The notes beneath the pieces are model-generated. The model saw only the letters and a program-made list of their open reading frames with translations. It was not told the DNA's origin and did no database searches. Shown here one piece after another: positions 38,481 through 62,853 of a DNA stretch of 64,000 nt. The translations under genes and the position numbers were made by a program. How positions within the stretch are numbered: the first letter of the stretch is position 1; each line of letters begins with the position of its first letter. Where the stretch lies: the NCBI GenBank assembly GCA_949285325.1, contig CASDYZ010000007.1, positions 82,657-146,656 on the forward strand, in the 5' to 3' direction. Source of the DNA: an uncultured bacterium. GTDB lineage: Bacteria; Bacillota_I; Bacilli_A; RFN20; CAG-826.

Positions 38481-38839
38481 AAGTACACATAAATAATGAA
38501 TTTGACTTATTTTATAAGTGCTTTGTCTTTAGTTCTCCAACATCAAAAGAGAAATCTAAATTAATATCAACGCCGAACACAGGTAGATTAAAAATAGTAA
38601 AATTAATGGATGTACAGCCTTTAAGAACAAATTAAAGAATTTTATTAATAAAGTTTTAAAAAACAATTAAAAAGGTTAAAAAAATTCTCTGTATTGCAAT
38701 TATTATTGTAACCAAGAGAAAAAATTTAACCATAAATTAAAAAACAAAAAAACAAATTTATTAAAAAATATAGTGTTAAATCCCAAAGATGGAACTATTG
38801 TCAAAATTATATTTTTCTATAAACTTCAAATTTAATATT

Positions 38840-39244
38840 TTACTTAGATTCTTTATTATCAACACTAATTAAAAATATTTTTTTATCAAACGCACCTCGT
38901 TGATAAGCTTTTTCTTTTCTCATTTTTTCAAATTCATCATAAGTTAATCCTTTGGCGTTTATAATAGCAAGTATTATTTCTTCAATATCACATAGTTCCA
39001 TAATTGATTCGTCGCTTAAATATTCATCTAATTCTTCTTTTAATTTTGTATTAAGCGATTCTAAATATTCTTTATCATCAAGAATCCTACATTTGCATGT
39101 TTTATTATCTTTTTCAATGATTGAAGGAATTTTATCTCTGACTAACTTATTATAAATTTTTACAAACGGCTTGCCTCCTAAACTAAAATTTATTATAACA
39201 TTATAAAAGATAAAAAGATTATAAGAATGTATGGTGGACATCAA
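38840..39244 (-). CDS. MazG-like / HisE-like nucleoside triphosphate pyrophosphohydrolase
   Basis: KLVRDKIPSII motif plus acidic helical EE..E...EL.D.EE. This is characteristic of the all-alpha NTP-PPase (PRA-PH/MazG) superfamily. Confidence 0.55.
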   Translation of the reverse strand: MMSTIHSYNLFIFYNVIINFSLGGKPFVKIYNKLVRDKIPSIIEKDNKTCKCRILDDKEYLESLNTKLKEELDEYLSDESIMELCDIEEIILAIINAKGLTYDEFEKMRKEKAYQRGAFDKKIFLISVDNKESK

Positions 39245-39311
39245 CCATTAATTAATTTAGTAGATAAATCTAATAAAAATAATAGAGTTTTACAAGAAAA
39301 GAGAAATTAAA

Positions 39312-40025
39312 ATGGGTTTATTAAGTAAAATAATTAGTTTATTTAAAAGAAATAAGAATCCAACAATTAATGGCAAAGTTGGAGAAGATTTAACTAATTT
39401 TCATTTAAATAATTGCAGTAGTGATTGTCCTATTCGCAAGGGAATAAATGATTTAATTCTTTTAGATGAGAACGGCATGAGTCATCAAATCGATCATGTT
39501 GAAATAAGAGAAAATGGTATATTTTGTATCGAGACAAAAAATTATGCTGGATGGATTTTTGGAAATGAAGAGTGCGAGTACTGGATTCAAAACTTTTACA
39601 ATAAAAATAAACGCAGATTATATAATCCTATAAAACAAAATAAAACACACTGCGACGTCATTAATAAAGTCATAGGGGATAAATATAAAATTAATTCACT
39701 CATAGTGATGACTAAAAACAACGCTGATAAGATTAAAAGCGAAAAAGTTATTAATTTAAATGAGCTAGTGATGCATTTAGAAATTTTTGATAACGGTGTT
39801 CATTTATCTAATGAAGAAATAATTGATATTTATAATAAGTTAGAGTCAGCAAGAAGTACGATAAACAAAAAGCAACACATAGATAATGTCAAAAAAGTTA
39901 AAAAAGCGTTGAATAAAAATATTTGTCCTATGTGTGGTGCCCAATTGATATTGAAAAAAGGAAAATTTGGTGAATTTTACAGTTGCGCTAATTTTCCTAA
40001 ATGTAGTTTTACTAAAGAAGCATGA
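39312..40025 (+). CDS. NERD (nuclease-related domain) protein with C-terminal topoisomerase-type zinc ribbon
   Basis: N-terminal NERD-like region (GEDLT..HL....DCPIRKGINDLILLDENGMSHQIDHVEI.E.GIFCIETKN). C-terminal CPMCGAQLILKKGKFGEFYSCANFPKCSFT zinc ribbon. Confidence 0.7.
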   Translation: MGLLSKIISLFKRNKNPTINGKVGEDLTNFHLNNCSSDCPIRKGINDLILLDENGMSHQIDHVEIRENGIFCIETKNYAGWIFGNEECEYWIQNFYNKNKRRLYNPIKQNKTHCDVINKVIGDKYKINSLIVMTKNNADKIKSEKVINLNELVMHLEIFDNGVHLSNEEIIDIYNKLESARSTINKKQHIDNVKKVKKALNKNICPMCGAQLILKKGKFGEFYSCANFPKCSFTKEA

Positions 40026-40070
40026 TGTGGCCCGTGCTATAATACAGTTCAGTTAAGGATAAAAGTATAT

Positions 40071-42146
40071 ATGGAACATAGTCTAAAAAGAACGCCCGGT
40101 AGAACATATTATGAATCTACAATAGAAGAATTTGTGTTAAATAAAAAACCTAGAGAAATAGTGGATTATTTAACAGAAAGTGATGAAGAGATGGATTTAA
40201 ATATTTTAAAATCTCAAAAGCACGCTTGGACTAATCAGATATCAATATTGCAAAAATATTTAAAAGATAAATCCGGTTATATTATTTTTGAATATGTTTT
40301 ATCCAGATTAAATATGAGGATAGATGTTGTACTTTTAATGGGTGATGTTGTCTATTCTTTAGAATTTAAAAATTTTGAAACAACATTTAAACCTGATGCG
40401 ATAGACCAAGCAGAAGGTTATGGATACGCACTTAAAAACTTTTATGAAGTGAATAGAGATAAATATGTCGTACCTATATTAATCGCGACAAAAGCGCCAG
40501 ACAGTATATGTTCTAATAAATCTGATTTAGGGATAGATAAACTGTTTACTCTTTTTAAAGCTAATATACATAAGATGGAGCAATACATTGAATTAATTAG
40601 ATCAAAATATGGTTCTACTACGATATATACTGAAGAGGATTTTAATAACTGGGTTAACTCACCTTTTAAACCTAATCCTTCAATCATACAAAGCGCTAGA
40701 TCAATATATATGAACAATCAAGTTGATGAGTTTTTTAAATTTGACGCTGGTGAAGAGAATTTAAAAGTAACTGAATCGACAGTGGAAGCTATTGTTAAAG
40801 ATGCGAGAGAAAACAAAAAGAAAATTATTTGTTTTGTTTCAGGTGTGCCAGGTGCAGGTAAAACATTAGTTGGTCTCGATTTAGCGGGTAAAACTAGAGA
40901 TGGTGTCAATGAAAAAACAATATTTTTCAGCGGTAATGGACCTCTTATTAACGTACTTACAGAAGCGCTTGGAAGAGATGCTTTTAAAAATAATCCCTTA
41001 AAATATCCTAATAAAAATCGTGCAGTTACTGATGTTAAAGCGTTTATACAAGACCTGCATGCTTTTAAACAAGATATCATCTCATCAAAAAATAAAACGA
41101 TAGAAGAAAATGTATTGATATTTGATGAAGCACAACGAGTTTGGGATGAAACTCAACTTGAGCAGTGGCTTAAAAAGAAAGGCGCAGATCCTAAATTTTA
41201 TGGTTTGTCAGAAGCCGATTTATTATTAAACACTTTCAACAACCGTTCATGGGGCGTCATCGTCGCCTTAGTAGGGTTAGGTCAAGACATACACAGAGGC
41301 GAAAATGGTTTAGGCGTATGGTTTAATTCACTTTTAAACAAACACAAAGAGTGGGAGATTAGATTGTCTGATGGTATATTTAGCCAAAACGCTGATGATT
41401 TAAGAGATTACATGGATGAATTAAAAAATAATAAAAGAGTAAAAGAGTGCCCAGGCTTATTTTTAAAAACATCGATAAGAACTCCCAGGGCTAAAAATTT
41501 ATCTGAATTTACTGAAGCATTATTGTTTAATAATCCCTCTAAAGCAAGACACGCTCTATCTAAATTTAACGATTATCCTATATGTATAACTAGGAATCTC
41601 GAGTTAGCTTTAAATTTTGTACAGTCTAATTCAGCTAGAAAAGAGAGAATAGGTAAACTCTGTAGCAGTAATAGCAAGATATTAGGTAAAAGAAGTCGTC
41701 AATTTGATAATATTGTCAATTTTAAATTTTCTAACTGGATGCTCGACGAAAATGGAGCGGATTGTTCAAATACACTAATATATGCGGCTACAGAATTTAA
41801 TATCCAAGGACTAGAGATAGATTGGTCACTTTTAGGTTGGGACATGGATATGTATTATTCTAATGGTGAGTGGTGTCAGCAGAAAATGTTGACCGCTAAA
41901 CGATTTAAAGAAAGTTCAGATATTGAGAAAAAACATATTTTAAATTCTTACCGTGTCCTACTTACAAGAGCGAGAAAAGGTATGGTTATATATATACCAA
42001 AAACAGACGAATATGAAGATGTCTATGGCACAAATAAATATTTAGATTCAACATATGATTATTTAAAGTCATGTGGTATTAAAGACATAGAAGAAGAAGC
42101 AACCATGTTTAATAAACAAATAGACGCTGTTAAGTTGCCTTTTTAG
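40071..42146 (+). CDS. DUF2075-family (Schlafen-like) P-loop ATPase/helicase with N-terminal restriction-endonuclease-like region
   Basis: Walker A FVSGVPGAGKTLVGLDL, Walker B LIFDEAQRVWDE and a C-terminal LLTRARKGMVIYIP SF1-like motif. The N-terminal ...IFEYVLSRLNMRIDVVLLMGDVVYSLEFKNFE resembles a PD-(D/E)xK module. Confidence 0.65.
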   Translation: MEHSLKRTPGRTYYESTIEEFVLNKKPREIVDYLTESDEEMDLNILKSQKHAWTNQISILQKYLKDKSGYIIFEYVLSRLNMRIDVVLLMGDVVYSLEFKNFETTFKPDAIDQAEGYGYALKNFYEVNRDKYVVPILIATKAPDSICSNKSDLGIDKLFTLFKANIHKMEQYIELIRSKYGSTTIYTEEDFNNWVNSPFKPNPSIIQSARSIYMNNQVDEFFKFDAGEENLKVTESTVEAIVKDARENKKKIICFVSGVPGAGKTLVGLDLAGKTRDGVNEKTIFFSGNGPLINVLTEALGRDAFKNNPLKYPNKNRAVTDVKAFIQDLHAFKQDIISSKNKTIEENVLIFDEAQRVWDETQLEQWLKKKGADPKFYGLSEADLLLNTFNNRSWGVIVALVGLGQDIHRGENGLGVWFNSLLNKHKEWEIRLSDGIFSQNADDLRDYMDELKNNKRVKECPGLFLKTSIRTPRAKNLSEFTEALLFNNPSKARHALSKFNDYPICITRNLELALNFVQSNSARKERIGKLCSSNSKILGKRSRQFDNIVNFKFSNWMLDENGADCSNTLIYAATEFNIQGLEIDWSLLGWDMDMYYSNGEWCQQKMLTAKRFKESSDIEKKHILNSYRVLLTRARKGMVIYIPKTDEYEDVYGTNKYLDSTYDYLKSCGIKDIEEEATMFNKQIDAVKLPF

Positions 42147-42242
42147 AGCATACGTATATTAATCAAACAATCTTTAAATCTTTTAAATAATAACTTTTTT
42201 CATTTACAATAATTAATAACGAAGAAAGAATAGTTAAATTAG

Positions 42243-45200
42243 ATGGCAACGATTAATGAACAAGTTGAAGAATATAGAGAAACAGAAGTTTTAAAATTGT
42301 ATAAAGAACATAAAGACGAGATTATTCGTGATTTAAATAGAGAAAAAAGTACAAAAGATGACTACAACGGTAGAGTAATTTTAGAATTGTTACAAAACGC
42401 TGTTGACCAAGCAATAGATGGTGAAACAGTAAAAATATTTATTAGTTTAGAAAACAATGAGTTAATTATTAAAAACACAGGCGAACCTTTTGATTTTGAA
42501 GGTGTAAAAAGTGTTATGAAATCCGATCATTCGCCAAAAGCTGAAGATCAAAACACTATCGGATATAAAGGGCTTGGGTTTCGTTCGGTAATAAACTGGT
42601 CTCATGATATTTCTATTTATAGTCACGATTTAAGCATTAGATTTTCTAACAATTTTAGAAAACAATATTTTGAAAAAAATGGAATATTAGACGAAACAGC
42701 GTTACTAGTAGCACCGCAAATAATAGAAAACATCGACCAAGACGGATATGACACAATTATCAAGATTAAAATTGATAACGAAACAAAAATAGAAGAAGTA
42801 AAATCACAACTTAACAATATCAATAAATATACTTTGTTGTTTTTAGACAATGTCGATGAATTATCTATTAAAATAGATAATAGAACTAAAAGATATCAAA
42901 GAAAAGAAAAAGAAGATGAAGTTACAATAATTGATGATGGAAATGAAAACAAATTCAACCTTTTCAAAAAAGAAGAAGAAATAAATGATAAAAAACATAA
43001 AATCGTGATTGCGTATGATCCGGCAATCGATTGTACAAAAAATAAACTTTATTCATATTTTGAAACGAACATTTCTCTTCCTATTAAATGGAAATGTCAT
43101 GTAACATTTGATTTAGAATCAAACAGAAAACATATTGTAGAAAGTGAAGACAATATAAATCTTTTTAAAACATTGATTTCTTTTATTTTAGAAAAAGCAC
43201 AAGAGTTGGCAGAAAAACAAAATCCTAGAACGTATGAATTTTTTGATAGTGTGTTACCAATAATTAAGGCAGAGCATTTATCTTTTGGAATAAATGACGC
43301 ATCACTAATAAGTTTTTTTAAAGATGAAATTGAAAACGCCAAGATTCTTCCAACATTACCAAACGGTTTAGTTTGTTTAAATGATCGACCAATATTTTAT
43401 GAGAATATTCCTGATTTTTTTAAAGATATAGAAAATGAAAAAATTTTATGTGAATCAAATGATAAAGATAGAAACGAAATTTTGAGCAAAATGCTACAAT
43501 ACAACGATTTTAATCCTATGGGCTTAAAAGAACAAATTAATAAAGTGAGTCATGAATATGACGCAAAAACAAATGTTGGCATTTATTTATGGTGGGAGGG
43601 CAAATATAGAAATAATAATAATTGTTTACCAAACGTTTTAAAAAATTCACATGGAGAGTTTATAGAAAAAGACACTAATGTTTATTTTGTGCATAGTAAT
43701 GAAGATTTTGATATTCCAACTTGGGCAAAAATTATCCAACTTGATAAAGAATATGAGCAAGAATTAAAAGAACAAACACAGAAGTTTTTCCCGCATATAT
43801 TTAAAAAAAATAAGGATTCAGTTGAAAGAATAATTGGGGCAAATTCTGGTAAATATCAAATATTATCTCATATCAATTTTCATGATTCTGATATTTCTAA
43901 CATAATTTCTCCTATAAATTCATCGGTAAAGAATGATTTTAAAAAAGCAAAAGAATTTGTTAAGTGGCTATGGAAACATTATTCAAATAGAGATGGGTGG
44001 GTACCACCAGATGAAATAAGATTTAATTTTCCATCAAATAACGAAACAGTTTGTAAAGCCAACGAATTATTTTTAGGACAAAATTATGACAATCCATTAG
44101 GTGATAAATTGTTTCAAGACAATAAATTTGAACCTTTGTTAGACTTTAAAAGACTTAATATAGAACAAGAACAAAAAGAAGATTTTATAAAATTTATTTT
44201 AAAATTTTCGGTAAATAAATTCCCAGTATTACAAAAAACAACTATCGAAGATAGTGATTTTAGAAAGCAATATTCAGAAGAGTGGATAAAAAATAAAATA
44301 TTAGAAATATATGAAAAAGACGAACCAAGATACATTGAATTAAAAAAAGTAGAAACCAACAATATCGAAAAATTAGAAACAATATTAGACAATCTTGAGG
44401 ATTATGAAATTTTTCAGTGGTTGTGTTTTGATGATAAAATCAAGCAAGAAATAGAATTGAAAAACAAAAATCAAATTACAGTTGATTATGATATAAGATC
44501 TTATACCCATAGAAACAATCAAATAATAGAAGATGATGAAAGAAGTTATATCAAATATATAATATCTAAAACTAAATGGATAAATATTGGTGGAGTAAAA
44601 CATGCACCTGTTGAGTGCGTATTTATTAATAAATATGATGTTAAACTAAATGAGTTGCTACATGTTATTGACGAAGAATATATTAAGAATATTTGTAACA
44701 AAGCAAATATTACAAAAGATACATTAAATAAGACAATTAAACATATCGGTATAGCGGAACGTATAAGCAATTTAAAATCCAATGATTTGTATGACTTCTT
44801 ATTAAAATTACCAAATTATGATAAACGGGGGATTATTTCCAAAAAACTATATAACGAATTTTGTGAGCCAGATAATACTATTGATATTACATATTCAGAA
44901 AATAAACAAAGATTTTTTCAAGAAGGACAAGTTTACACTTATAACAGAGATGGTGAAAGTTTTCATCTTGCGTCTGACACATATTTTACTAATAGCATGA
45001 TGATAAATTTAAAGAACAAATATATTATTTTCACTCCAAATAGAAAAGGAAGCTTTGAAACATTTAAAAATGTATTTGGTGTTCAAAAATTTGAAGAAAA
45101 TGTTTCCGTAGTTGAAGGAAGTGAAACAATAAGTCAGCACAATAAAAGTTTCCAAGAAGATTTTAAAGATTTTGTTAAATATGCGAGACATTGGAAAATA

Positions 45201-46685
45201 AAAAATGAAAAACTAGGAGAAGAAATAGATAAGATAACAGTTAAACTTATCACACAAATTAGTTTAGAGGAAAACGGAAAGACCATGATATTCAAAGATA
45301 AATATATCCCAATTTTTAATGGTAAAACATGGTACATAGTAGTGGACGATAGCGATGATGTGAATGATCTTAATATAAGAGAATGCATTGAAAATATTTG
45401 TGGAAAAATTGGAAACACGGAGAATGAGACAATTTTGCGTGAGTTAGGTGAAGTTTATGAAAACAAAAATAATAGATTACAACGTACCGAGAAGTATTTA
45501 GGAGAACCAATATCGATAGAAGACACTGTAATTGAAAACGAGATACGTAAGTCATTTGCAAAAATATTAAATTTAAAATACGAAGATGACGATTTGAAAG
45601 GTATTGATTTTGACAATATTGAATCTTTAGAAGTAGCAGAGTCAATATTTAAACTTTTGAAAAGGCATAATAAAAGCATAAAAGAATTGCGACGAGATAA
45701 TTTTAAGTACATCGATAAAATTAAATTTGAAAACTATTTTCAAAACATGATAAAAAATTTCATCGACACCAATGAAGACAAATACAAGAATTCATTATTT
45801 GTGTCTTATAAAGATAAAGATAGAAAAGACCAAGAACAATTTTTAGATAAGGTTGATGAATTTAAACATTTTTCTCCTGACTTTGACGCAACAAAATTTG
45901 ACATAGATTTTGACGCACAAAAATTAGTTACAAAACATTTTTCAATCATAGGCGATGAGATAGACGCTGAAGCGGACGAAGAATACGAAAACAATTTCAA
46001 AGAATATTTTAGTGATTTATATAATAATGATGAATTTAAAGACTTTCTCATTAGAAACAAAAATTATAAATCTTTAATTTATTTTATTAATGACACCAGT
46101 GGAGATATCGTAGATGAAATTAAAAATAAATATAACGGTCAAAAACAATTAAGTTTAGAGGATATCTACCCTTCAATCAGCGGAGAACAAAATCGCGCTA
46201 TAGATGATTTTATAGTGACAAAGAGTAAGTTTGAACCTAACATCACATCAACAAACAAAGGCGCAAATTCAAAAGAACATGTGAAAACATCTAATGAAAT
46301 TGAAAGAGAAAATCGTAAGAAAAGGAAAAGTGGAAAACAAGCAGAAGAAATAGTATACAATTCTTTAAAGGACCGTATACCTTCTTTAAAATGGACTTCA
46401 GAAAGTTCGTCTTGTGCAAGTCAAAGAGGAAATTCACAAAAATACGATATGGAATATATCAAAGATGGAGAGAAACACTATATAGAAGTCAAGGCGGGCG
46501 TCACATCTTTTTATATGTCTAGAAGTGAATATGATTTTTCACAAGAGAATAAAGATGTCTATGAAATATATTTAGTTGATTCAGACGCTACAAAAATAGA
46601 TGGCCCACACACGATAGGTGAATTTGAAGGCGCGAAAGAAGTTAATGAATATATCTTTAATTTTAAAAAAGTTACTGACAATTAA
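42243..46685 (+). CDS. Giant sacsin/HSP90-like GHKL ATPase with C-terminal DUF3883 (restriction-endonuclease-like) domain
   Basis: Bergerat-fold N-box ILELLQNAVDQA and G2 box IGYKGLGFRSVINWS at the N-terminus. A C-terminal DUF3883-like block (GKQAEEIVYNSLKDRIPSLKWTSE...KYDMEYIKDGEKHYIEVKAG...YEIYLV) closes the 1480 aa protein. Confidence 0.65.
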   Translation: MATINEQVEEYRETEVLKLYKEHKDEIIRDLNREKSTKDDYNGRVILELLQNAVDQAIDGETVKIFISLENNELIIKNTGEPFDFEGVKSVMKSDHSPKAEDQNTIGYKGLGFRSVINWSHDISIYSHDLSIRFSNNFRKQYFEKNGILDETALLVAPQIIENIDQDGYDTIIKIKIDNETKIEEVKSQLNNINKYTLLFLDNVDELSIKIDNRTKRYQRKEKEDEVTIIDDGNENKFNLFKKEEEINDKKHKIVIAYDPAIDCTKNKLYSYFETNISLPIKWKCHVTFDLESNRKHIVESEDNINLFKTLISFILEKAQELAEKQNPRTYEFFDSVLPIIKAEHLSFGINDASLISFFKDEIENAKILPTLPNGLVCLNDRPIFYENIPDFFKDIENEKILCESNDKDRNEILSKMLQYNDFNPMGLKEQINKVSHEYDAKTNVGIYLWWEGKYRNNNNCLPNVLKNSHGEFIEKDTNVYFVHSNEDFDIPTWAKIIQLDKEYEQELKEQTQKFFPHIFKKNKDSVERIIGANSGKYQILSHINFHDSDISNIISPINSSVKNDFKKAKEFVKWLWKHYSNRDGWVPPDEIRFNFPSNNETVCKANELFLGQNYDNPLGDKLFQDNKFEPLLDFKRLNIEQEQKEDFIKFILKFSVNKFPVLQKTTIEDSDFRKQYSEEWIKNKILEIYEKDEPRYIELKKVETNNIEKLETILDNLEDYEIFQWLCFDDKIKQEIELKNKNQITVDYDIRSYTHRNNQIIEDDERSYIKYIISKTKWINIGGVKHAPVECVFINKYDVKLNELLHVIDEEYIKNICNKANITKDTLNKTIKHIGIAERISNLKSNDLYDFLLKLPNYDKRGIISKKLYNEFCEPDNTIDITYSENKQRFFQEGQVYTYNRDGESFHLASDTYFTNSMMINLKNKYIIFTPNRKGSFETFKNVFGVQKFEENVSVVEGSETISQHNKSFQEDFKDFVKYARHWKIKNEKLGEEIDKITVKLITQISLEENGKTMIFKDKYIPIFNGKTWYIVVDDSDDVNDLNIRECIENICGKIGNTENETILRELGEVYENKNNRLQRTEKYLGEPISIEDTVIENEIRKSFAKILNLKYEDDDLKGIDFDNIESLEVAESIFKLLKRHNKSIKELRRDNFKYIDKIKFENYFQNMIKNFIDTNEDKYKNSLFVSYKDKDRKDQEQFLDKVDEFKHFSPDFDATKFDIDFDAQKLVTKHFSIIGDEIDAEADEEYENNFKEYFSDLYNNDEFKDFLIRNKNYKSLIYFINDTSGDIVDEIKNKYNGQKQLSLEDIYPSISGEQNRAIDDFIVTKSKFEPNITSTNKGANSKEHVKTSNEIERENRKKRKSGKQAEEIVYNSLKDRIPSLKWTSESSSCASQRGNSQKYDMEYIKDGEKHYIEVKAGVTSFYMSRSEYDFSQENKDVYEIYLVDSDATKIDGPHTIGEFEGAKEVNEYIFNFKKVTDN

Positions 46686-46831
46686 TTATTAATTCAACAT
46701 CATTTTTATAAAAATCAAAGCAAAACGAGCATATTTAATATATATTTACATTAATATTTGATTAATTTAATTAGTTTTGCTATGTGTGTAAACAATGGAC
46801 TTTAAAATAAAAATATTTGATAATTGTATTT

Positions 46832-52839: not shown

Positions 52840-52872
52840 AATTAATGCAAATTAAAGATATTTTAATTAAAT

Positions 52873-53703
52873 TTACAATATTATTTTAACGATAGTAATG
52901 TCGTCGATAACTTTAAAACGATTATATTTATTAAAATCTATATCAGAGTATGCTTTTTCTTTTATTTCGTTAAATAATATATCTAAATCATCTTTGCTAT
53001 TTATTTTTGATATTGTTTCATCCATAGATTTATAAATGTTAAAAGTGGACCATATATCTTCAAACCCATCAGTTAATAAACTTATGGATGATATATCTTT
53101 TTTCTCTATAGATTCGTGAGAAAAATTAAACACCCCATCACGTGAACAAGTATATATCGCATACCCTTCTTTTTTATTTGCTTTAAGCCGATGTTTGATC
53201 AATATATCGTTATTATTTTGTCTAGCTTTTTTAAAACTGACATTATTTTTTAAGGCGTATTCTTTCATGACATTTAACGATATATCGTCTAATTTAACTA
53301 GTTCTTGTTGTTGATAATTTTTAAATTGGTGCTCTTTATTTTCTATTACGATTTGACTATCACCAATATAATCTAAATTTATTCTATTATCATCAATATT
53401 GACGACGACCATCCCGACACTAGGTAAGATAGACATATCAGCGTTATTTAAAAAATATTGTTCATAATATTTGATACTTATTTTTTTAAGTGCATCTTTT
53501 AAATGTATATATTTTTTAGGTAGATGTCTTTTTATGTAATTGACGAAATGGGCGCCGGTGGAGGGGAGAAGAGAAGAAGGGACAAGTCCAGTCGCCCCAT
53601 CCATAACTAAAACATAATCATCACCGATGAAGAAACGATCTTCATTGTAATAATGTGATTTACGTGTTTTATAAATTAATGTTAAGTCTTTTTTAATATT
53701 CAT
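52873..53703 (-). CDS. PP2C-family serine/threonine protein phosphatase
   Basis: PP2C metal-binding motifs YNEDRF (motif 1), VMDGATG (motif 2), IGDSQIVI (motif 8) and LLTDGFED (motif 11). Its ATG abuts the TAA of the upstream gene (TAAATG). Confidence 0.6.
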   Translation of the reverse strand: MNIKKDLTLIYKTRKSHYYNEDRFFIGDDYVLVMDGATGLVPSSLLPSTGAHFVNYIKRHLPKKYIHLKDALKKISIKYYEQYFLNNADMSILPSVGMVVVNIDDNRINLDYIGDSQIVIENKEHQFKNYQQQELVKLDDISLNVMKEYALKNNVSFKKARQNNNDILIKHRLKANKKEGYAIYTCSRDGVFNFSHESIEKKDISSISLLTDGFEDIWSTFNIYKSMDETISKINSKDDLDILFNEIKEKAYSDIDFNKYNRFKVIDDITIVKIIL

Positions 53704-54939
53704 TTAGATAATACCTGCAGTGATTAAAGAGGCGGTTAGGATAAGAGCCCCTATACATAGGATAATTATAGAATATATTTTTTGTTTTTTCTTTAAATCG
53801 TCTAACACTAGGCTAACACCAACTAAACATATACCCAATAAAATTAGTATCAAACCGAGGTAGGCACATATATATAGTACGATTCTAATTGGTTCATCGA
53901 CTCTAGCGAATATTTCAATGCTACCTAATAAGAAACCTAACAACGCTGTCATGATAGATATGACTTTAAAATTGTCAGTCTTAATAGATTTAAGTGTCTC
54001 ATAATTGCTATTTGATGTATCAAACGCTTGTATTAATGATATGTTATTTGCGATTAATTTATATGAGTCGATTGTTGATTTATTAGGAGAAGATGATTCA
54101 TATACTTTTTGTATCCCTTTATTTATGCTTTCTAGTGCGAGTGCGTATTCGTGTGAGAGGGCGAGTAGTCTTCCTCTAGTGACATAGTATTTGTCATATA
54201 CTTTTAAATTGTATTTAACTGCCTCATTTATTTTGTCATTGAATATTTTTTGCTCTTCATCATATTCTTTATCTTTTAACAATTTAATATTGTCTATCGA
54301 GTTATTTTTCTCCGCCTCTTTAATCAAATCGTTAATTTTATTTAAAGCGTCTTTAATTTGCTTTTGTCCGACATTATCTTCTTTCTCATCTTTTAAATCG
54401 AGATGTCTTTCATAATATATGGCAATCATCTCACAGTAGTGATGGATGATGCCAGGTTGAGTTGAAAGAGATGGGTGTTCTTTTCTCATCCTTTCTGACT
54501 GTTTTATCAATCTATCGTATTTATCGTAAAATTTAGGTGAATTAGCTTTATTTAATAAATCGATATGTTTTTTAATTGGATAGTTGTTAAATTCAAAACC
54601 AAATTGTTCAACTTCTTGTAGATAAAATGTTTCCATCTCAGAAAAATTGTTTTGTCTTCGATAATAAGTAAAGACAATCCAAAAATAAGTAAAGATAATA
54701 TCTAATTGTTCACCTTGTCTTTGTTTAGGATTCTTAATATAAGCATCCTTTTCACTTTGATAAATATTTTTTATTTGATTTATAAGGTTATTAGATGCAA
54801 TTAATTTACTTAATTCTGTCACTTGACATTCATACTGACGGCTACTAAAAAAATCTTTATCGTCATCATTATTAGTCGTCTCTTTTTTAAGTTCACATAT
54901 ACTTTTAATGTACTGTTTAATATTAACTAAATACTTCAT
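53704..54939 (-). CDS. Hypothetical alpha-helical protein with two C-terminal transmembrane helices, co-operonic with the PP2C phosphatase
   Basis: 411 aa with a soluble helical N-domain and two long hydrophobic helices near the C-terminus. Its stop is directly fused to the PP2C start. Confidence 0.45.
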   Translation of the reverse strand: MKYLVNIKQYIKSICELKKETTNNDDDKDFFSSRQYECQVTELSKLIASNNLINQIKNIYQSEKDAYIKNPKQRQGEQLDIIFTYFWIVFTYYRRQNNFSEMETFYLQEVEQFGFEFNNYPIKKHIDLLNKANSPKFYDKYDRLIKQSERMRKEHPSLSTQPGIIHHYCEMIAIYYERHLDLKDEKEDNVGQKQIKDALNKINDLIKEAEKNNSIDNIKLLKDKEYDEEQKIFNDKINEAVKYNLKVYDKYYVTRGRLLALSHEYALALESINKGIQKVYESSSPNKSTIDSYKLIANNISLIQAFDTSNSNYETLKSIKTDNFKVISIMTALLGFLLGSIEIFARVDEPIRIVLYICAYLGLILILLGICLVGVSLVLDDLKKKQKIYSIIILCIGALILTASLITAGII

Positions 54940-54959
54940 ATTTTTTATCCTTTCTTAAA

Positions 54960-56987
54960 TCAAAAACTAATTCTAATCGAAGGGCGAACACCAGTGTCGG
55001 ATAAAGTAGGAGAAGTAGCCCTAAACATCCCGTTATCGATAATAGCCATTACGGATGAGGAGTTATAGTTATATGGTGTCCTTGTCCAATAATCTGACCT
55101 TTCGTTATCTAATACATAACCGCCAATGGCTTTAAAATAGTCACTCACAATTCCTGCCCTTGCTTCGTCGATGGTGTTTTCTTTTTTAAATTCAAAACTT
55201 GTCAAATCTTTATAGCTGAGCGGATAGACATAGTCATCTGTATCCTCACAAATATAAGGGTGATCTTCATCCATCGTTGAAGCACTAGAATTATCGACAG
55301 TAGTTAATAATATTCTATCTCTTTCTTCCTCACTAAAAGCTTTATTTAAAAACTCATCATTTAAAAATGTTCTTAAAGTTGAAGAAGCGTAATTATTACT
55401 CAAGGTGGCACTAAACTCATGGGCATCTAAAATGTATTTACTAAAAAGTAGAAACCCTTCATTATCTTCATCTAATATATCCCACTCGATTGGCTTGACA
55501 TTAAAATAATACGTTTCACCAGCACTGACTATTGTCCCATCGCTAAACACATAATCCACACCAGCGGGATTTGCTTCTACTTTTACATATTCATTATTGT
55601 TATATGAATAGTAACCATTTTCGTTTGGTGTAACATTATTTAAAACAACTTTCAACTGTTCATTTACGCTGTGGCCAACATAACTTTGAGGATATTTACC
55701 AAATGTCAATTCTTCTTGTTTCTCGTATGGGAATAAAGTCGTCCCGATATTACTAACTTTAGTATCTATAACCGCCGGATGATAACTACCGCCTTCATCT
55801 TTTTTAATTGCCTCGTAATGGATACTTATATCTTGGATGACATTATTTTCATCGACATTTAAAGTGACATACGCTTGTGATATATCAAGAATTTGATAAT
55901 TAAATCCAATGAACGGTAAGGCGGGATCAAAATATCTTAAATAGTACATGTATCCATTTGCAAAATCAAAGCCACCGAGGATGTCATATACATTATTTCC
56001 TAGTGGTCTAAATAGATATGGTGTCATACTGACTTTAGTTAAATAGTCTTTGACAGTCGCACTTATCGCATTTTCACCTTTTCTAATATAAAGATTATTT
56101 TCCACATCGATATCGACTGGATATAATCCGTATTCATATTGGGCAAATACTTTGGTGTTATCTCCCTTTTTAATAAGTAGTCCATCGTTAGACGCTTCGA
56201 CGTGTGTCTTATCTTTGACGTCATTGACACTTATATCGATGTTGAGAGTGTAATTACCCCCGTTTAAAATAGTTAACATCTGATTAATTTTATTTAAATC
56301 ATCTTGAGGATAAGTATTAGGATTTAAACAACTTGCGATACCTGGCATGTTAATGTCACTTATATTGACACTTACAAAAGTCGCGTCGACATTATAAGAG
56401 GCATCGTTTTGGTCTATCGTCCCAATAAATTTAAATTGTTTGACACTTCTATCGTCATTTAATGTAACTTCTATTTTATTAGTGCTACCAAAATCCATAT
56501 GTATCAATGTATAGATTAATTGGTTTTTATCTTCTAAGGTATAAGTGAATTTGTCGTGTGAATCAATTTCAACATCATCAGCATTTATGTTATTAAAAGG
56601 TGAGACTACATATTCGTCAAAAGGGATATAGTTAACTGTGTCTTGACTTAGGTAGGCGACATCATCAATACGACCTTCATTATTTAATAGATACGACATC
56701 GATTCACCATTTAATCCTTCAAATATATTCTCATACTGCATCGATATATCATTGACTTCTATTTTAGTGTAGTATCTTCTTACTCCCACCTCATAACTAG
56801 CGTACGTCGTCGTTTTAATTGTCTTATTTTTGTAGTAGCCGCCATCGATTTTAATCGTGCCTTTTATAGATATTTCACTTTGTAGTTGTTTAAGTGCGTT
56901 ATCGAGAGTGTCTCTATCCATTTCGCTAGGTGAACAACTAACAATAGATAAACATAAGAACGGAATAATTAAATTTTTAAATTTCAT
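54960..56987 (-). CDS. Hypothetical surface lipoprotein with DUF6273-like C-terminal domain
   Basis: Signal peptide plus lipobox (LSIVSCSP). The C-terminal motif SDYWTRTP...GVRPSIRI resembles the YWWLRSP/VRPA pattern of a Firmicute surface-protein domain. It lies 20 nt upstream of the next minus-strand gene. Confidence 0.5.
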   Translation of the reverse strand: MKFKNLIIPFLCLSIVSCSPSEMDRDTLDNALKQLQSEISIKGTIKIDGGYYKNKTIKTTTYASYEVGVRRYYTKIEVNDISMQYENIFEGLNGESMSYLLNNEGRIDDVAYLSQDTVNYIPFDEYVVSPFNNINADDVEIDSHDKFTYTLEDKNQLIYTLIHMDFGSTNKIEVTLNDDRSVKQFKFIGTIDQNDASYNVDATFVSVNISDINMPGIASCLNPNTYPQDDLNKINQMLTILNGGNYTLNIDISVNDVKDKTHVEASNDGLLIKKGDNTKVFAQYEYGLYPVDIDVENNLYIRKGENAISATVKDYLTKVSMTPYLFRPLGNNVYDILGGFDFANGYMYYLRYFDPALPFIGFNYQILDISQAYVTLNVDENNVIQDISIHYEAIKKDEGGSYHPAVIDTKVSNIGTTLFPYEKQEELTFGKYPQSYVGHSVNEQLKVVLNNVTPNENGYYSYNNNEYVKVEANPAGVDYVFSDGTIVSAGETYYFNVKPIEWDILDEDNEGFLLFSKYILDAHEFSATLSNNYASSTLRTFLNDEFLNKAFSEEERDRILLTTVDNSSASTMDEDHPYICEDTDDYVYPLSYKDLTSFEFKKENTIDEARAGIVSDYFKAIGGYVLDNERSDYWTRTPYNYNSSSVMAIIDNGMFRATSPTLSDTGVRPSIRISF

Positions 56988-57301
56988 ATTATTTTTTCTT
57001 CTTTATTAACATTATATCACGATTGATTTTAATAATTATTGAAGATTATTAATTAATTTTAATCAATATGTTCAATTAAATTGCTTTATGTTAAAAATAA
57101 GTGCGAAATTGAATATATTATCGATGTATTTTTAAATATTTTTATTGAAATAAAATTGTTAAAGAAAATGGATATGAGAGTTGATAGAGGACTATATCTA
57201 GCTAGGAAAGAAAAAGGCTTAAACATTTTAACGACACTCAACATTACTTCCGATTTATTATTTAAAGTATTTCAAAATAAAAATAAAGGAGAAAATAATC
57301 G

Positions 57302-58919
57302 ATGAAACACTTTAAAACATTATTTTTGTTTTTACCATTATTGGGTTTAGTAAGTACCTCACTCTATGGGTGTGGAAAACAAGGTGAAGATAGCTCTTCT
57401 TCAATTACAACTAGTCAAACTAGTGAAGAAACTTCTTCTTCGTCTATTGAACTAGAAATTTCACTTCAAATACTCGATGGCGATATTATCGGGTTGGATG
57501 TCGGTGATACTTATCAACTCAATGTGTCGGTAGTCAATAGTGAGTTTACCCCTACCTTTTACCTCATCAAATGAAGATGTCACTTCTATTAATGAAGATG
57601 GCTTGATAAGTGCGATTAGTGAAGGAAGTACCATAATAAGTGCATCTATTGGAGATGTGATTGATTCAATTGAAGTAGTGGTTAATCCTATTCAACAAGA
57701 AGGCAGTGTACAAACTTATTTATATGTATTAAATCAAAGCGATTTTACTGGTTCAGGATATGATACAAGCGCGGGGAGTGCATATATAGATGGTTTAACT
57801 TGGGACTATGAAGCCTTCCCGTTTTTAGGGCAGAGTGCGGATGGCGTACAAATTGGTTCAAATAAACAACCACCTAGAGATGGTTGGACCATATCGACTA
57901 CTTTCCCTGGCGAGATAATTATGCTCAATTATGAAATTACTTTAAAGACAAATTCCCCTGCCTCTTATAAAGTGAGTATGGGAGAATATGTCAGCGAAGA
58001 AGAAATCCCGGGGAATAGCGTCACGACAGTATATGGTGAAGAAGGATTAGATATAAAGACCACTGATTCCTCTTTAACATTAACCAACCAAACCAAAGCA
58101 GTATACCTATATTCTATTTACTTAGAACTATTCGTCCCTGAAGGAGTAGATTTATCTTTGACTATTAAAGAAGATGAATTAACTCCTATCCAGCCTGGCG
58201 AAGGGGATGTGCCCAATGTCAATTATGAATTAATTGATAAAGAACAATATTATTCTTCTATAGATTTTAATAGTGACGCGTCAACACTAAAGGAAGAACT
58301 ATCCACACTTATATCGAACATGACTAGAATTAGTTATGGCGATGATACATATATCATGATTTACACTGATGAAAGTGTAGAAAAGCTTGGTACGTTATAT
58401 GGTATATATGGCGGTGATGAAATAGCCGCTGAGGCGGACGGCACATGGAATAAAGAGCACGTTTGGGTGTGTTCGCAGATGAAGAAAGATGGGGTTGATC
58501 CACGCCCTAGCAGTGACGATAAAAACCACGCGACAGACTTGCACAATCTTCGTGTCGCTTGTCAAAATAGCAATGGCCAACATGGCAATAAATTTTATGA
58601 CAACACCAATGGGGATATAACCTTTTTCCCTAACATTGAAGATGATGGCTCAGCAGTTCATGAATATAAAGGTGACCACCGAGGCGATCTAGCAAGAATT
58701 TTATTTTACATGGCTATTCGTTATGATTTCTTATCTTTAACAGATGATATTGAAAATGCAAACGATACATCAATGGGTCGATTATCTGTCTTATTAGAAT
58801 GGCACAAACTTGATCCAGCCGATGAATTTGAAACGCAAAGAAACAACCGTATTTATGAATTCCAAGGTAATCGTAATCCATTTATTGATTATCCTGGATT
58901 AGTTGATGTTTTATATTAG
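57302..58919 (+). pseudogene. Frameshifted lipoprotein extracellular nuclease (Endonuclease I family plus Big_2 domain), third paralog
   Basis: ORFs 57302-57574 and 57540-58919 are two frames of one gene. Signal plus lipobox (LYGCG), a Big_2 domain split at GAGTTTA (about 57546-57552; one T fewer would restore SELPLPFTSSNEDV). C-terminal Endonuclease I motifs NKEHVWVCS...DLHNLRVACQNSNGQHGNKFYD...LARILFYMAIRY. Confidence 0.7.
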
Positions 58920-59068
58920 TTTTTAATCAAAATAGTGGGTTTTTAAAGCGTTATTTGTTTTTAACTATAGTTTTTGATTATTTTTATCATTATTTTGTAA
59001 AAAAGTGATAACTTGCATTGATTAATTTTGTTATTTAATATTAATTTATTCAAAAATAAAGTTGATTT

Positions 59069-62000
59069 ATGGAACTATCAGTTAAAAATGCGCTTTACGA
59101 GTCGATAATGAACAATAAATGGCTCGACATCATCTATGTCAATAAAGCAAGTGAGACGACTTATTACTATATTGGTATAAAAGATATCGATGTAGAAAAA
59201 GATTTGATTTTATGCGACATCTTTAACGCATATAAAAAAGATAAAAAAGATTTAAATAATGTCAGTATTAAAATAAGTGGGATTAAAAAAGCAAAGATAC
59301 TCGACGCATCTTTTTACGACACACCTCTTACGTTAGTCAATAAGATTAATAATGATAAAAATATTATTAATTATTTAGATGTCATCAACTACGATAACAA
59401 CATCCTAAGATATTTATCCGACTGCTATAAAGCTGACAGTGATCCTTATTTAAAACATTCAGTGACAATCGATGGGGTGGATAACCACACATTGATAGAA
59501 AAAAGTAAATACAAATTAGATGAAAAGCAATTTGAAGATATATTAAATAAAGTTTTTAAAAAGCCTTTATATGACGCGGAAGTGATGAATAGATATCAAC
59601 AACTCGCCATTAATAAATTTTCTATCGACATAAACGATAAGCAGTATGTCGTCGCGTATAAAGAACTTTTTATCAATTTTAAAGACAAGACTTTAAGAGT
59701 GTCTAAAAAGACATTTTTCAATAAATCTTTTTTAGTCGATGAAGATAAAAAGATGACATTGAGTATGTATATAGATATGAATCAAGATGAGTTTTGTGCC
59801 TCGTATGATGAACATGAAAGAGAATATATCGAATTGATTCAATCGAATTTCAAAAGAGGGGAAAAAGTAAATACCCGCCCATCGATATTCTTCTTAGAAA
59901 GAAATGTCACCTATGGTGTCGATATGGCGTGTGAATCTATATACGCTTTAGATAGTGAAAATAAATTGACTCTTCCCTTAAAAGCGTTCTTCGGGAGAAA
60001 TAGACCATCGAAAGGTTCATCTAAAGAAGTTAACATCGTCGTCTTTGATAAGACAAAAATAAATATTGATCAAATTAGAGTGATATACTCCGCGATGCTC
60101 AACCACGTAACATATGTCAAAGGTCCACCTGGCACTGGTAAGACAGAAACTATTTTTAATGTCATATTATCCGCCTATTCAAACAATAAAACTGTTTTAA
60201 TTTGTTCTAATAACAATCATCCAGTTAATGACATCTATAGCAAGATGCAAAAATTTATGGTTAAAACTAACTATAGAACTAAAAAAGAAGAAGATATATT
60301 GTTCCCTATAATTAGATTAGGCAACAACCTCGAAGTTGTTGAATCTATGAATACGATTAGATCGGTTGTAGATTTTATAAGTAGCAAAAATCTTAAGTCT
60401 TTAAAAGATGAAATAACTGAAACATCTAAAAGACGTTCGATGGATGGATTTAATAAATTAAAACAACTTTTAATTGAATATGAAGAAAGAGTGGACAATG
60501 AAGATAAATTGTCGACATTATTAAAAATTAAAAACATCACCAAAATTGACGCTTTAAATCAAAAATTAGATGAGCAGATAAAGGTATATGAAAATAAAAT
60601 AAAAAATGGTAGAGAAATAAGTGATGAAGATGTATTAGAATACGCTTTAAGTGCGAGCAAGGATACAAATTTTCAAAACTTTATCTACTATTCTTCTCTT
60701 GCAAGGTATAAGAAATTACTTAGCCCGTCATATAAAGATTTAATTGAAATATTAAATATTGAAGACACCATTGAGGCACTTAATCAATTTAATAAATATT
60801 TAAAAAACAACGACAATCTCAAAAAGTTTTTATCGGTCTTCCCTTTTGTCGTGTCGACAAATATATCTTGTGATAAATTAGGCAGTCCTTCTCCACATTT
60901 TGATTTAGTCATCATGGATGAAGCTGGGCAGTGCAATATCGCTTCTAGTTTAATACCTATCGTGAGAGGTAACGACCTACTTTTAGTGGGCGATACAAAT
61001 CAACTTCAACCAGTGACAGTAATAGAAGAGAGCACAAATGAGAGGCTGATGGATAAATACGGAGTTAAATCTGAATATGACTATATTAGAAATTCTATAT
61101 TATCGAGTATGATGAGAGTGGATAACAATTCTAAAAATATTCTTTTGAGATACCATTATCGATGTGGGAGAAAAATAGCAAATTTTTCTAACAAAAGATA
61201 TTACAATTCCCAGCTTAAACTCCTAAATAAACACGAAGGCAAATTGACGTACGTAAATGTTAAAAATATCTATAACAAAAATAGTAGAAATGCATACGAG
61301 CAAGAAGCTAGAGCAATTGTAGAGATAATTAAAAATAACAATTATAAAGATGTAGGTGTCATCACTCCTTTTGTCAATCAAGCAGCGTTAATAAATGAAT
61401 ATTTAATAAAAGAAGGTATAACCGATGTAAAAGCCGGGACTATTCACACCTTACAAGGTTCAGAAAAAAACACCATTATCATGAGTAGTGCCTTAAGTTT
61501 AAGAACTAGCAAGAACACTTTAAAGTGGATTGAAAACAATTATGAATTGATCAATGTCGCGGTGACTAGGGCAAAAGAACAATTTATTTTTGTCGGAGAT
61601 AAACAAGCGATAGACCTATTAAGTGGTAACAACAAAAGCGACATAAAAGTTTTGTCGGATTACGTGTATGCGAAAGGGGAGATATTCGTCCCAGAAAGCG
61701 AATTAAAAATAGTTAATGATTTTTCTAACAATTCAAAAAATGAAAAAGAATTCTTCGACACGATTGGACCATATTTTAATAGGAGAGGCACTAAATTTAA
61801 AATCGATGCGAATGTGCCACTTAATCAAGCATTAAATGCATTAAGTGCGCAGGACAAGGATATTTTTGGTAAAAAAGAATTCGATATTGTCGTGTCAGTC
61901 GGTGAAGGATTGATAAGAAAAAAATACCGCACTCTCGTGGTATTTGAAATTGATGGAGGAGAGCATATCGGTTTAAAAAGGCAATCGCGACTCGATAGAG

Positions 62001-62167
62001 AAAAAGAAATGATTTGTCAAAAATATGGTATAAAACTTATCCGTATACCTAATTCAGCAGTTAAAGACTATGAGATGATTATATCTTTATTTGAATATGT
62101 TGTAAGCGGACTACCTAGCATCGATAAAGCCTATTCTCGATTGTCGTTATTTGAAGATAATGATTAA
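59069..62167 (+). CDS. Upf1/DNA2-like superfamily 1 helicase with C-terminal Vsr/DUF559-like endonuclease-fold domain (Hhe/Nhi-like single-protein defence candidate)
   Basis: Walker A GPPGTGKTETIFNV, Walker B VIMDEAGQ, motifs V/VI GTIHTLQGSEKNTIIMS and NVAVTRAKEQFIFVGD. The C-terminal about 120 aa (FDIVVSVGEGLIRKKYRTLVVFEIDGGEHIG...REKEMICQKYGIKLIRIP) matches the DUF559/Vsr-like REase fold. Confidence 0.7.
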   Translation: MELSVKNALYESIMNNKWLDIIYVNKASETTYYYIGIKDIDVEKDLILCDIFNAYKKDKKDLNNVSIKISGIKKAKILDASFYDTPLTLVNKINNDKNIINYLDVINYDNNILRYLSDCYKADSDPYLKHSVTIDGVDNHTLIEKSKYKLDEKQFEDILNKVFKKPLYDAEVMNRYQQLAINKFSIDINDKQYVVAYKELFINFKDKTLRVSKKTFFNKSFLVDEDKKMTLSMYIDMNQDEFCASYDEHEREYIELIQSNFKRGEKVNTRPSIFFLERNVTYGVDMACESIYALDSENKLTLPLKAFFGRNRPSKGSSKEVNIVVFDKTKINIDQIRVIYSAMLNHVTYVKGPPGTGKTETIFNVILSAYSNNKTVLICSNNNHPVNDIYSKMQKFMVKTNYRTKKEEDILFPIIRLGNNLEVVESMNTIRSVVDFISSKNLKSLKDEITETSKRRSMDGFNKLKQLLIEYEERVDNEDKLSTLLKIKNITKIDALNQKLDEQIKVYENKIKNGREISDEDVLEYALSASKDTNFQNFIYYSSLARYKKLLSPSYKDLIEILNIEDTIEALNQFNKYLKNNDNLKKFLSVFPFVVSTNISCDKLGSPSPHFDLVIMDEAGQCNIASSLIPIVRGNDLLLVGDTNQLQPVTVIEESTNERLMDKYGVKSEYDYIRNSILSSMMRVDNNSKNILLRYHYRCGRKIANFSNKRYYNSQLKLLNKHEGKLTYVNVKNIYNKNSRNAYEQEARAIVEIIKNNNYKDVGVITPFVNQAALINEYLIKEGITDVKAGTIHTLQGSEKNTIIMSSALSLRTSKNTLKWIENNYELINVAVTRAKEQFIFVGDKQAIDLLSGNNKSDIKVLSDYVYAKGEIFVPESELKIVNDFSNNSKNEKEFFDTIGPYFNRRGTKFKIDANVPLNQALNALSAQDKDIFGKKEFDIVVSVGEGLIRKKYRTLVVFEIDGGEHIGLKRQSRLDREKEMICQKYGIKLIRIPNSAVKDYEMIISLFEYVVSGLPSIDKAYSRLSLFEDND

Positions 62168-62574
62168 AAGACATAGATAATTAATAATTCTATTATTGGC
62201 CAAACTACATATATGATGATAGATATTAAACTTAACCAACTTAAAAAATTTTTATTACACCTAAATTGAAACACAAGAGTGGATAACGTATATCTAAAAA
62301 CATATATGTAAATTAAAAAACAAAATAAATATATAATCGCCCCTAAAATTAAAAAGACATAATAAAACACTAGATTACCATCGTTAAAATAATTAAAAGA
62401 ACTATCTATGACAAAACTAGCAAGATAAATTAATAAAGATAAAATTACGAGTGAGATAAAAGACACACATATACAATAAATAGCAAAATATTTGCTATTT
62501 TGTGCTTCATTTTTCGCTTTTAAAGTCTGATATTTGATTTCATATTTTTTATTTAAGTCATCGAGAAATTTCAT
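62164..62574 (-). CDS. Hypothetical small membrane protein
   Basis: 136 aa with four predicted hydrophobic helices. It overlaps the convergent helicase gene by 4 nt. Coding status is uncertain. Confidence 0.35.
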   Translation of the reverse strand: MKFLDDLNKKYEIKYQTLKAKNEAQNSKYFAIYCICVSFISLVILSLLIYLASFVIDSSFNYFNDGNLVFYYVFLILGAIIYLFCFLIYIYVFRYTLSTLVFQFRCNKNFLSWLSLISIIIYVVWPIIELLIIYVF

Positions 62575-62853
62575 ATTATTAATTATATCTTAATTCGACA
62601 CTTAAGTTTTCAAATTTAATCTAAATGCAAAATTTATATAATTTAGGATAAAAGAAACAAACGTCTATTTTTTATCTCCACCCCTTGTATATCAAAGCGT
62701 TCATCATATTTTTTGCTTGTCAAAATTATTAAAATTATTTATTATTAGAGTATAAATAAATTCATTTGTAATTTATTGAAAGCGCACTTAGGTAAAATAA
62801 GTGTTTATGATTTATTTCAATAAATCAAAATTTAATGAAAGGATGTTTAACAA

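Follow-up and report, generated by a model that had tools for sequence, protein, structure and literature searches.

The rlmD–hup interval of an uncultured gut Bacilli lineage is a probable core-gene-flanked hotspot and carries a candidate helicase–partner defence pair

This study provided comparative evidence that the interval between the core genes rlmD and hup, in a 64,000-nt stretch of DNA from an uncultured bacterium (the whole stretch is called the window below), is very probably a chromosomal hotspot with core-gene flanks, which related species have filled independently of one another; here it forms a mosaic of at least three layers. Two adjacent genes within it, encoding a UvrD-like helicase and a small partner, are put forward, tentatively and at less than even confidence, as a previously undescribed two-gene anti-phage system in which a UvrD-type motor and a hypervariable sensor would control a built-in RelE/HigB-type RNase. 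The initial annotation had described this place as an accessory, defence-type island of about 24 kb between core genes and as the place to look for new immunity systems. Its interpretation is supported with refinements: the block is a mosaic hotspot instead of one 24-kb insertion, and the conserved, uncatalogued helicase–partner pair is a candidate for such a system. The interval is delimited by the following features.

37134..38480, plus strand: rlmD (PF05958), the left core flank
62164-62574, minus strand: tm136, a small membrane protein gene that adjoins hup; its product is 39% identical to the sister-species counterpart (tblastn)
62854-63126, plus strand: hup (PF00216, E 8e-34), the right core flank

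The interval covers window positions 38,481-62,164 and is bounded on both sides by conserved flanks, with the order tldD/pmbA–metallophosphoesterase–rpmE–metG–rlmD on the left and tm136–hup–621aa–LemA–(acetyltransferase)–PepC–pyrG on the right. The coordinates and gene order of the initial annotation agree with the map of open reading frames (ORFs); the true right edge is tm136. To gather loci of relatives, the surroundings of RlmD homologues were looked up, as were those of the conserved 621-aa gene right of hup; a scan of genome contigs with RlmD returned one close species, on a contig that ends inside rlmD and thus gives no downstream context. The RlmD homologues carry the labels 'Coprobacillus sp.' or 'Bacilli bacterium' metagenome-assembled genomes (MAGs), and the lineage is one of uncultured low-GC Bacilli. 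The left flank is kept in relatives with RlmD 77, 70, 67 and 66% identical to that of the window (L013, L014, L016-19 and L026/28), and the right flank hup–621aa–LemA–PepC is kept in the sister species (L023-25) and in the 66% relative (L026).

The flanks are kept and the cargo differs every time, as expected from an accessory block, and four relatives have four unrelated gene sets in the slot. Downstream of rlmD, the sister species has a large serine recombinase together with a tyrosine integrase and an HKD+Snf2 helicase (L013); on the hup side, it has a TIR–methyltransferase and type II-A CRISPR-Cas (Cas9/Cas1/Cas2/Csn2) (L023/24), and its cargo is thus rich in defence genes as well. The cargo downstream of rlmD consists of a sugar ABC transporter and GH32 in L014, and of SLFN_AlbA_2/HATPase_c_4, SUFU and IS21 in the 67% relative (L016-19). 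Only in the 66% relative (GCA_021203905.1) do rlmD and hup lie on a single contig; they are about 6.1 kb apart there, and the 6.1-kb slot holds non-defence genes, namely an isochorismatase, a WYL protein, a MatE/cytidylate-kinase fusion, NrdI and Endonuclease_1. None of the window genes of 38.8-57 kb, nor the Upf1-like gene described below, was found in the loci of the four relatives by tblastn. Consistently, blastn homology to the relatives breaks off at ~38,450 and picks up again at ~62,684. Since the flanks are kept while the cargo differs between relatives, the interval behaves as a core-gene-flanked variable hotspot and not as core genome; rlmD–hup is a slot whose accessory genes are specific to the species. 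As an object, the island is of an ordinary kind, and defence systems are poorly charted in this gut Bacilli lineage. The metG–rlmD...tm136–hup–LemA anchor can be used to collect immune cargo from this uncultured lineage of gut bacteria with small genomes.

Several further features were observed in the relatives' loci. The SLFN_AlbA_2 + HATPase_c_4 protein of L016-19 opens the slot and has weak PADLOC matches to families of the prokaryotic Argonaute (pAgo)-associated and CasR types; it is followed by the SUFU protein and, in some contigs, by IS21. L016 and L017 have identical RlmD, yet their left flanks differ upstream of the metallophosphoesterase gene. Directly upstream of the type II-A CRISPR-Cas genes of the sister species lies a 435-aa fusion of TIR_2 with a class I methyltransferase (L023 1-915 and L024 1-585); this unusual fusion may itself act as a defence effector. 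On the right flank, LemA always follows a protein of 614-640 aa with no Pfam domain (L020 10384-12932; also L023, L026 and L040). This protein has 1,771 homologues at E <= 1e-20, its pairing with LemA is widespread in the lineage even where hup synteny is missing, and the two form a conserved two-gene unit.

Some points weigh against the hotspot interpretation or narrow its range. The composition of the island gave a divided answer: GC content is ~4 points below the flanks in 38-48 kb (26-30% vs about 32-35%), whereas GC at third codon positions (GC3) and synonymous codon distance are inside the range of the window's core genes. With such a small GC drop and core-like codon usage, composition gives no independent support for horizontal acquisition. 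In the more distant relative L040, hup/rlmD synteny is gone, which makes this locus unusable for the hotspot comparison; the loss of synteny at greater distance confines the hotspot to a narrow clade. Moreover, only near-identical strains could be retrieved for this species; they all carry the same island and differ by one frameshift and one 336-bp indel, so that no turnover of cargo within the species was seen. The layout as such is not an assembly chimera, because an independent Logan contig (ERR10610567_4007, 29,003 nt) covers window positions 35,307-64,309 with identical length.

Within the interval, the part worth experiments is the helicase–partner pair, as a conserved unit with defence neighbours in which a RelE-type fold is joined to a UvrD-type motor.

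46832..50605, plus strand: UvrD-like helicase, 1,257 aa (PF00580)
50602..51150, plus strand: partner, 182 aa, with a start that overlaps the helicase stop by 4 nt

The helicase is composed of an N-terminal region (aa 1-450), a RelE/HigB-fold domain (aa ~487-602, nt ~48290-48640) and a UvrD-like superfamily 1 (SF1) motor (aa ~631-1125), with GCAGSGKT as Walker A and IIIDEVQD as Walker B. The BECR/RelE/ParE-type fold of aa ~487-602 was seen by structure comparison only. This domain keeps the conserved residues R487, K551, R561 and H590, with invariant Arg and His residues across homologues. The N-terminal 450 aa (46832-48181) are the most divergent part of the protein, at 14-37% identity among homologues. 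Their predicted fold, obtained from just 7 sequences with a predicted local distance difference test score (pLDDT) of 86.7, comprises several beta-rich domains and a helical bundle. A search of this region against the PDB gave no informative or significant structural match, and a few non-significant Foldseek matches were to HigB toxins (E ~2); going by these matches, the region might contain extra, degenerate RelE-like repeats. In the partner, a coiled coil and a K/E-rich linker separate a conserved N-terminal helix from a small C-terminal domain that is likewise conserved.

Searched exhaustively with HMMER, 1.84 billion cluster representatives yielded 426 relatives of the helicase at E <= 1e-3, six of them full-length (57-32% identity). 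The helicase was therefore rejected as an orphan, which a word-indexed search, with the protein itself and one weak match as its result, would have made of it. For the AT-rich, fast-evolving proteins of this lineage, the use of a word-indexed search alone leads to misleading 'orphan' calls.

The helicase is paired with the partner in all ten loci examined, namely the window, three looked-up loci and six Joint Genome Institute (JGI) metagenome loci. A partner homologue (22-52% identity) lies directly 3' of the helicase in L029-L035; the partner of L036 is a shorter, N-terminal-only form, and the same is taken to hold for L037, a near-duplicate of L036. A DEDDh exonuclease gene follows the pair in the window and was rejected as a third component, because it stands beside no helicase homologue in other genomes. 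A conserved upstream partner was likewise rejected, as the upstream genes of the different loci are mutually unrelated. All four pair loci with readable flanks have known or candidate defence neighbours: Tiamat and PDC-S41 in the window, PDC-S05 in L034, and PDC-M33A/B with a type II methyltransferase–restriction endonuclease (MTase–REase) in L033, the fourth being of the same kind. PADLOC applied to the helicase and eight relatives gave GajB-core matches only, all partial, and the pair is absent as a system from PADLOC-DB v2. Helicase fusions are also not among the proteins named in a review of multidomain RelE/ParE toxins (PMC11980606). Neither the pair nor the Upf1-like gene has relatives in 2.9 million viral contigs, and a phage origin of either was rejected on this basis.

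Based on this arrangement, the UvrD-like motor and the variable N-terminal 450 aa may sense phage nucleic acid or protein, and sensing would release or position the fused RelE/HigB-type putative RNase domain. The RelE-type domain would then cut RNA, leading to translation shutdown and abortive infection. The translationally coupled coiled-coil partner might keep the enzyme inactive, or it might oligomerise or scaffold it. The activities in this scheme and the direction of regulation are those that we infer from the domains and their order.

Certain results count against the pair as a new toxin-bearing immune system. No RelE/ParE Pfam family was significant by sequence for the RelE-like segment, and a sequence-profile search of this segment against the PDB found the P-loop part of helicases only. 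The partner matched no Pfam family and no antitoxin family. The pair may also be catalogued already in a newer resource.

These results also bear on the rival explanation that survives best, although we consider it unlikely: the pair would not be immune at all but a selfish addiction module of the toxin–antitoxin (TA) type, or a helicase for mobile-element maintenance or repair, hitch-hiking in variable regions. The RelE/ParE fold of the helicase domain is what such a module would carry, the small partner gene shows the translational coupling of type II TA operons and has no recognisable function, and the helicase family is small and patchily distributed. However, the toxin-like domain is built into an ATPase of 1,257 aa whose helicase motifs are intact, and not into a toxin of ~90 aa, and the neighbours in all four readable loci are known or candidate defence systems. 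Furthermore, many TA modules are themselves defensive (PMC11980606), so that the selfish and the immune readings overlap. The immune reading of the pair is our tentative proposal.

The pair is part of a 14-kb defence cluster (38.8-52.8 kb), in which all genes except the first (g134) are on the plus strand. The other members of the cluster are listed below.

38840..39244, minus strand: small ORF of 133-134 aa (g134), absent from the relatives' loci
39312..40025, plus strand: NERD protein with a C-terminal topoisomerase-type (Top1-type) C4 zinc ribbon (PF08378 E 8e-22; PF01396 E 2.5e-14; phrog_21557 E 5.5e-30)
40071..42146, plus strand: PDC-S41 gene, a NERD-like N-terminus followed by a DUF2075/SLFN-g3 SF1 helicase (PDLC05014 E 2.2e-181; PF09848 E 6e-60)
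42243..46685, plus strand: TmtA, the single gene of Tiamat (PDLC03964 E 2.6e-226)
51172..52083, plus strand: DEDDh-type 3'-5' exonuclease (aa 1-170) with a further C-terminal half (PADLOC DEDDh E 1.7e-6; KapD E 8e-5)
52135..52839, plus strand: XRE-family helix-turn-helix (HTH) regulator with one transmembrane segment and an extracytoplasmic domain (PF01381 E 4e-17)

The PADLOC profiles identified two catalogued systems in the island, Tiamat and PDC-S41, both as full-length matches. The alignment of the PDC-S41 gene spans positions 3-654 of 657 of PDLC05014; its N-terminus reaches NERD at E 0.0058 and 17.6 bits, under the cut-off of 22.1 bits. The gene is not Nhi proper, as it matches PDLC02372 at E 1e-4 over aa 241-369 only. 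A point against the defence reading is that PDC-S41 is a PADLOC 'candidate' family only, a single-gene candidate. TmtA residues 3-1458 align to positions 8-1510 of 1538 of PDLC03964, with a sacsin/GHKL-type ATP-binding domain at the N-terminus (NF047352, E 9e-21, aa 44-126) and PF13020 NOV_C/DUF3883 at the C-terminus (E 1e-9, aa 1367-1451). The gene is therefore Tiamat TmtA, with a predicted defence role in this genome. The labels NERD, DUF2075, GHKL–DUF3883, UvrD-like, XRE and Upf1-like of the initial annotation, like those of hup and rlmD, were all borne out by profile matches. Its DEDDh label stands on the visible DIE, NND and H-x4-D motifs, with weak profile matches only. The label of the first ORF as MazG-like was not confirmed, since no match was found in Pfam, NCBIfam, PHROGs, PADLOC or the PDB.

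The cluster may thus be a set of self-contained, nucleic-acid-targeting modules that would give several independent defences. By analogy with Nhi, PDC-S41 might unwind and degrade phage replication intermediates, and TmtA would combine a GHKL ATPase with a nuclease-like DUF3883 domain.

To the right of this cluster, the content changes. The following genes complete the interval up to tm136.

52873-53703, minus strand: 276-aa protein with sub-threshold PP2C similarity (PF13672, PP2C_2, E 0.012)
53704-54939, minus strand: 411-aa membrane protein
54960-56987, minus strand: DUF6273 lipoprotein (PF19789, E 9e-21)
57081..58919, plus strand: truncated HTH gene and frameshifted Endonuclease_1 lipoprotein (nuclease 57302-58919; PF04231, E 1.6e-25)
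59069..62167, plus strand: Upf1-like SF1B helicase (aa ~330-850) with a C-terminal DUF2726 (PF13086, PF13087, PF10881)

The ~6 kb from 52.9 to 58.9 kb consist of membrane and lipoprotein genes and a decaying nuclease. This stretch is not defence-type, and the island of about 24 kb recognised in the initial annotation stands in this respect as a mosaic hotspot with its defence cluster at 38.8-52.8 kb. The minus-strand block (52873..56987) has no PADLOC matches, and its first gene was not confirmed as a PP2C phosphatase, the similarity being below threshold. A DUF6273 paralogue occurs elsewhere in L014, and both the left flank and relatives contain paralogues of DUF6273 and Endonuclease_1; the block therefore resembles the envelope proteins of the lineage.

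The nuclease lipoprotein, annotated as frameshifted from the beginning, is an intact gene of 541 aa in strain L021, whose DNA is 98% identical and which also has an intact HTH gene of 168 aa. Compared with L021, the window carries a single additional base near 57,555, which causes the +1 frameshift in the nuclease, and a 336-bp deletion at 57,222 in the HTH gene (57081-57305 vs L021 3935-4441). The deletion is a multiple of three and removes most of the HTH domain but spares the final ~80 nt, along with the nuclease gene's ribosome-binding site. From both lesions, regulator and nuclease appear to decay together. The Endonuclease_1 protein is 33% identical over its full length to that of the gene immediately upstream of hup in GCA_021203905.1 (L026/L028).

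Three PF04231 lipoprotein paralogues occur in the 64-kb window, two large ones (776 and 866 aa, with Big/LTD domains; 26853-31785, minus strand) and the decaying one, and large Endonuclease_1 lipoproteins are likewise retained in the left flank of relatives. These observations point to surface nucleases as a trait of the lineage, which might serve to scavenge nucleotides in a gut organism with a small genome.

The Upf1-like protein matches MkoC (E 7e-56), MkoA (E 1e-41), Hhe and ProA in PADLOC over the helicase core only. Its PDB matches are IGHMBP2, Sen1, Upf1 and DNA2, with the N-terminal 330 aa unassigned, and its DUF2726 is presumably a PD-(D/E)xK-type nuclease. With core-only matches, and DUF2726 in the place of phospholipase D (PLD), the protein has a design of the Mokosh-II/Hhe type and is not a member of those families.

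Relatives have counterparts of Endonuclease_1 and tm136 at corresponding positions, so that the right third does not belong to one insertion. The three layers would accordingly be the 14-kb defence cluster (38.8-52.8 kb), an older, resident and decaying layer (52.9-58.9 kb), and a separate single-gene insertion (59.1-62.2 kb).

An improbable alternative to independent filling of a hotspot is that all 24 kb are what is left of a single, decayed integrative element (an integrative and conjugative element (ICE), a prophage or a serine-recombinase island) that landed downstream of rlmD and has lost its recombinase and attachment (att) sites. This explanation draws on the serine recombinase and tyrosine integrase found directly after rlmD in the sister species, on the IS21 in the slot of another relative, and on the GC content of the island, which is slightly under that of the flanks. 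In the window, however, the domain profile searches found no recombinase or transposase domain among the island ORFs, the interval contains no tRNA, and the only flanking repeats are AT-rich ones at chance level, none of them convincing. These results agree with the initial annotation, which had reported no integrase, transposase, tRNA or obvious direct repeat. The codon usage and GC3 of the island are core-like, the counterparts of Endonuclease_1 and tm136 place the right third outside any single insertion, and the helicase pair and the Upf1-like gene are without viral relatives. No CRISPR or tandem array and no Rfam RNA was detected within the island, and promoter and terminator scans were uninformative.

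That the block is ordinary lineage-specific core genome, with repair helicases and nucleases resembling defence genes, is very improbable: its codon usage is indistinguishable from core and all strains found of this species carry it, but its genes are missing from the syntenic interval of four related species, it gives full-length matches to defence-specific profiles, and the helicase family has six full-length members in 1.84e9 clusters. We therefore continue with the reading of the interval as a hotspot.

Concerning the surroundings, the region left of 38.5 kb had been annotated as housekeeping content, and this is mostly correct for its origin-proximal genes (rsmA, mnmE, yidC, dnaA, dnaN, serS, tldD/pmbA, metG and rlmD), with the exception of the two large Endonuclease_1 lipoproteins there. 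The window itself is a section of a MAG scaffold 234,949 nt long (ena:ERZ16268174:scaffold_9). GC and AT skew flip sign near 6 kb, by dnaA (6570-7943) and dnaN (8100-9227); with the replication origin near 6 kb, the hotspot lies ~32-56 kb from the origin, on the leading strand. A small signal recognition particle (SRP) RNA (RF00169, 60.5 bits) at 19917-20013 overlaps the start of the ORF 19979-20473 (GTG start), the 5' part of which is probably non-coding.

Hotspots flanked by core genes have been described as cDHS1/cDHS2 in P. aeruginosa (Johnson et al. 2023, PMC10250203) and as defence-island hotspots in E. coli (PMC10121019). The rlmD–hup interval is likewise a slot bounded by core genes, with varying cargo that is rich in anti-phage and unknown genes and a size of a few to tens of kb (6 vs 24 kb here). 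It differs in its flanking genes (rlmD and tm136–hup) and in the comparison on which it rests, which is species to species, whereas cDHS1/cDHS2 were defined in hundreds of strains of one species.

For the Tiamat family, phage defence has been experimentally demonstrated elsewhere; Tiamat/TmtA is reportedly from the work of Millman et al. in 2022. The island gene matches TmtA end to end, with the same GHKL-type ATPase and DUF3883/NOV_C, and with no detectable difference it is a new member from a gut MAG. Tiamat has also been listed as a single-gene PD-(D/E)XK system (bioRxiv 10.1101/2024.10.26.620412). The PDC-S41 gene shares with Nhi and Nhi-like proteins (Bari et al.; 10.1101/2022.05.11.491447) an N-terminal nuclease-like region and a DUF2075 SF1B helicase in one polypeptide; it differs in its weak, partial match to the Nhi profile (E 1e-4) and in an N-terminal nuclease that is marginally recognisable.

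The Upf1-like protein shares with Mokosh type II (MkoC) and Hhe a single polypeptide in which a Upf1-like (COG1112) helicase is followed by a C-terminal domain usually read as a nuclease. Mokosh has a PLD nuclease, whereas the window protein and its neighbours have no PLD domain and its C-terminus is DUF2726; Hhe and ProA are about twice its size, and it lacks their DUF4011 and STK.

With respect to the pair, Gabija also has a UvrD-like defence helicase, GajB, which is the only PADLOC match to the 1,257-aa helicase (~100 aa, E 7e-8). No island protein matched GajA (OLD/TOPRIM), and Gabija is without the RelE-fold domain, the N-terminal domains and the coiled-coil partner of the window pair. 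Type II RelE/ParE TA modules share the BECR-fold toxin domain with the window helicase, but they consist of a small monodomain toxin and its cognate antitoxin, whereas the window domain is internal to a large helicase.

The closest parallel in architecture is CnuH of the CoCoNuT systems, in which a RelE-like domain directly precedes an SF1 helicase (Bell et al. 2024, PMC11090510). Both have a RelE/colicin-D-fold 'RNase toxin-like' (RTL) domain immediately N-terminal to the SF1 motor, and as CnuH is encoded with a downstream partner of the coiled-coil/winged HTH type, the window helicase likewise has a downstream coiled-coil partner. In type III-B, CnuH carries a fused PD-(D/E)xK nuclease, which is paralleled by the Upf1-like/DUF2726 protein of the window. 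CnuH belongs to the UPF1-like clade, whereas the RelE-bearing helicase of the window is UvrD (SF1A, with PF00580 and GajB matches) and not AAA_11/12; it has no SmpB-like OB fold, and its partner has no nuclease domain. Also, no McrB/McrC (CnuB/CnuC) or HEPN genes were found in the island or beside the helicase homologues. If the pair is a new system, it would be the SF1A counterpart of the RelE-bearing CnuH helicases, free-standing and without McrBC. If it is active, it would be the second independent case, after the predicted RTL domain of CnuH, of a helicase equipped with a ribosome-toxin-like RNase, and it would offer a compact two-gene system for understanding how a translocase gates such a toxin.

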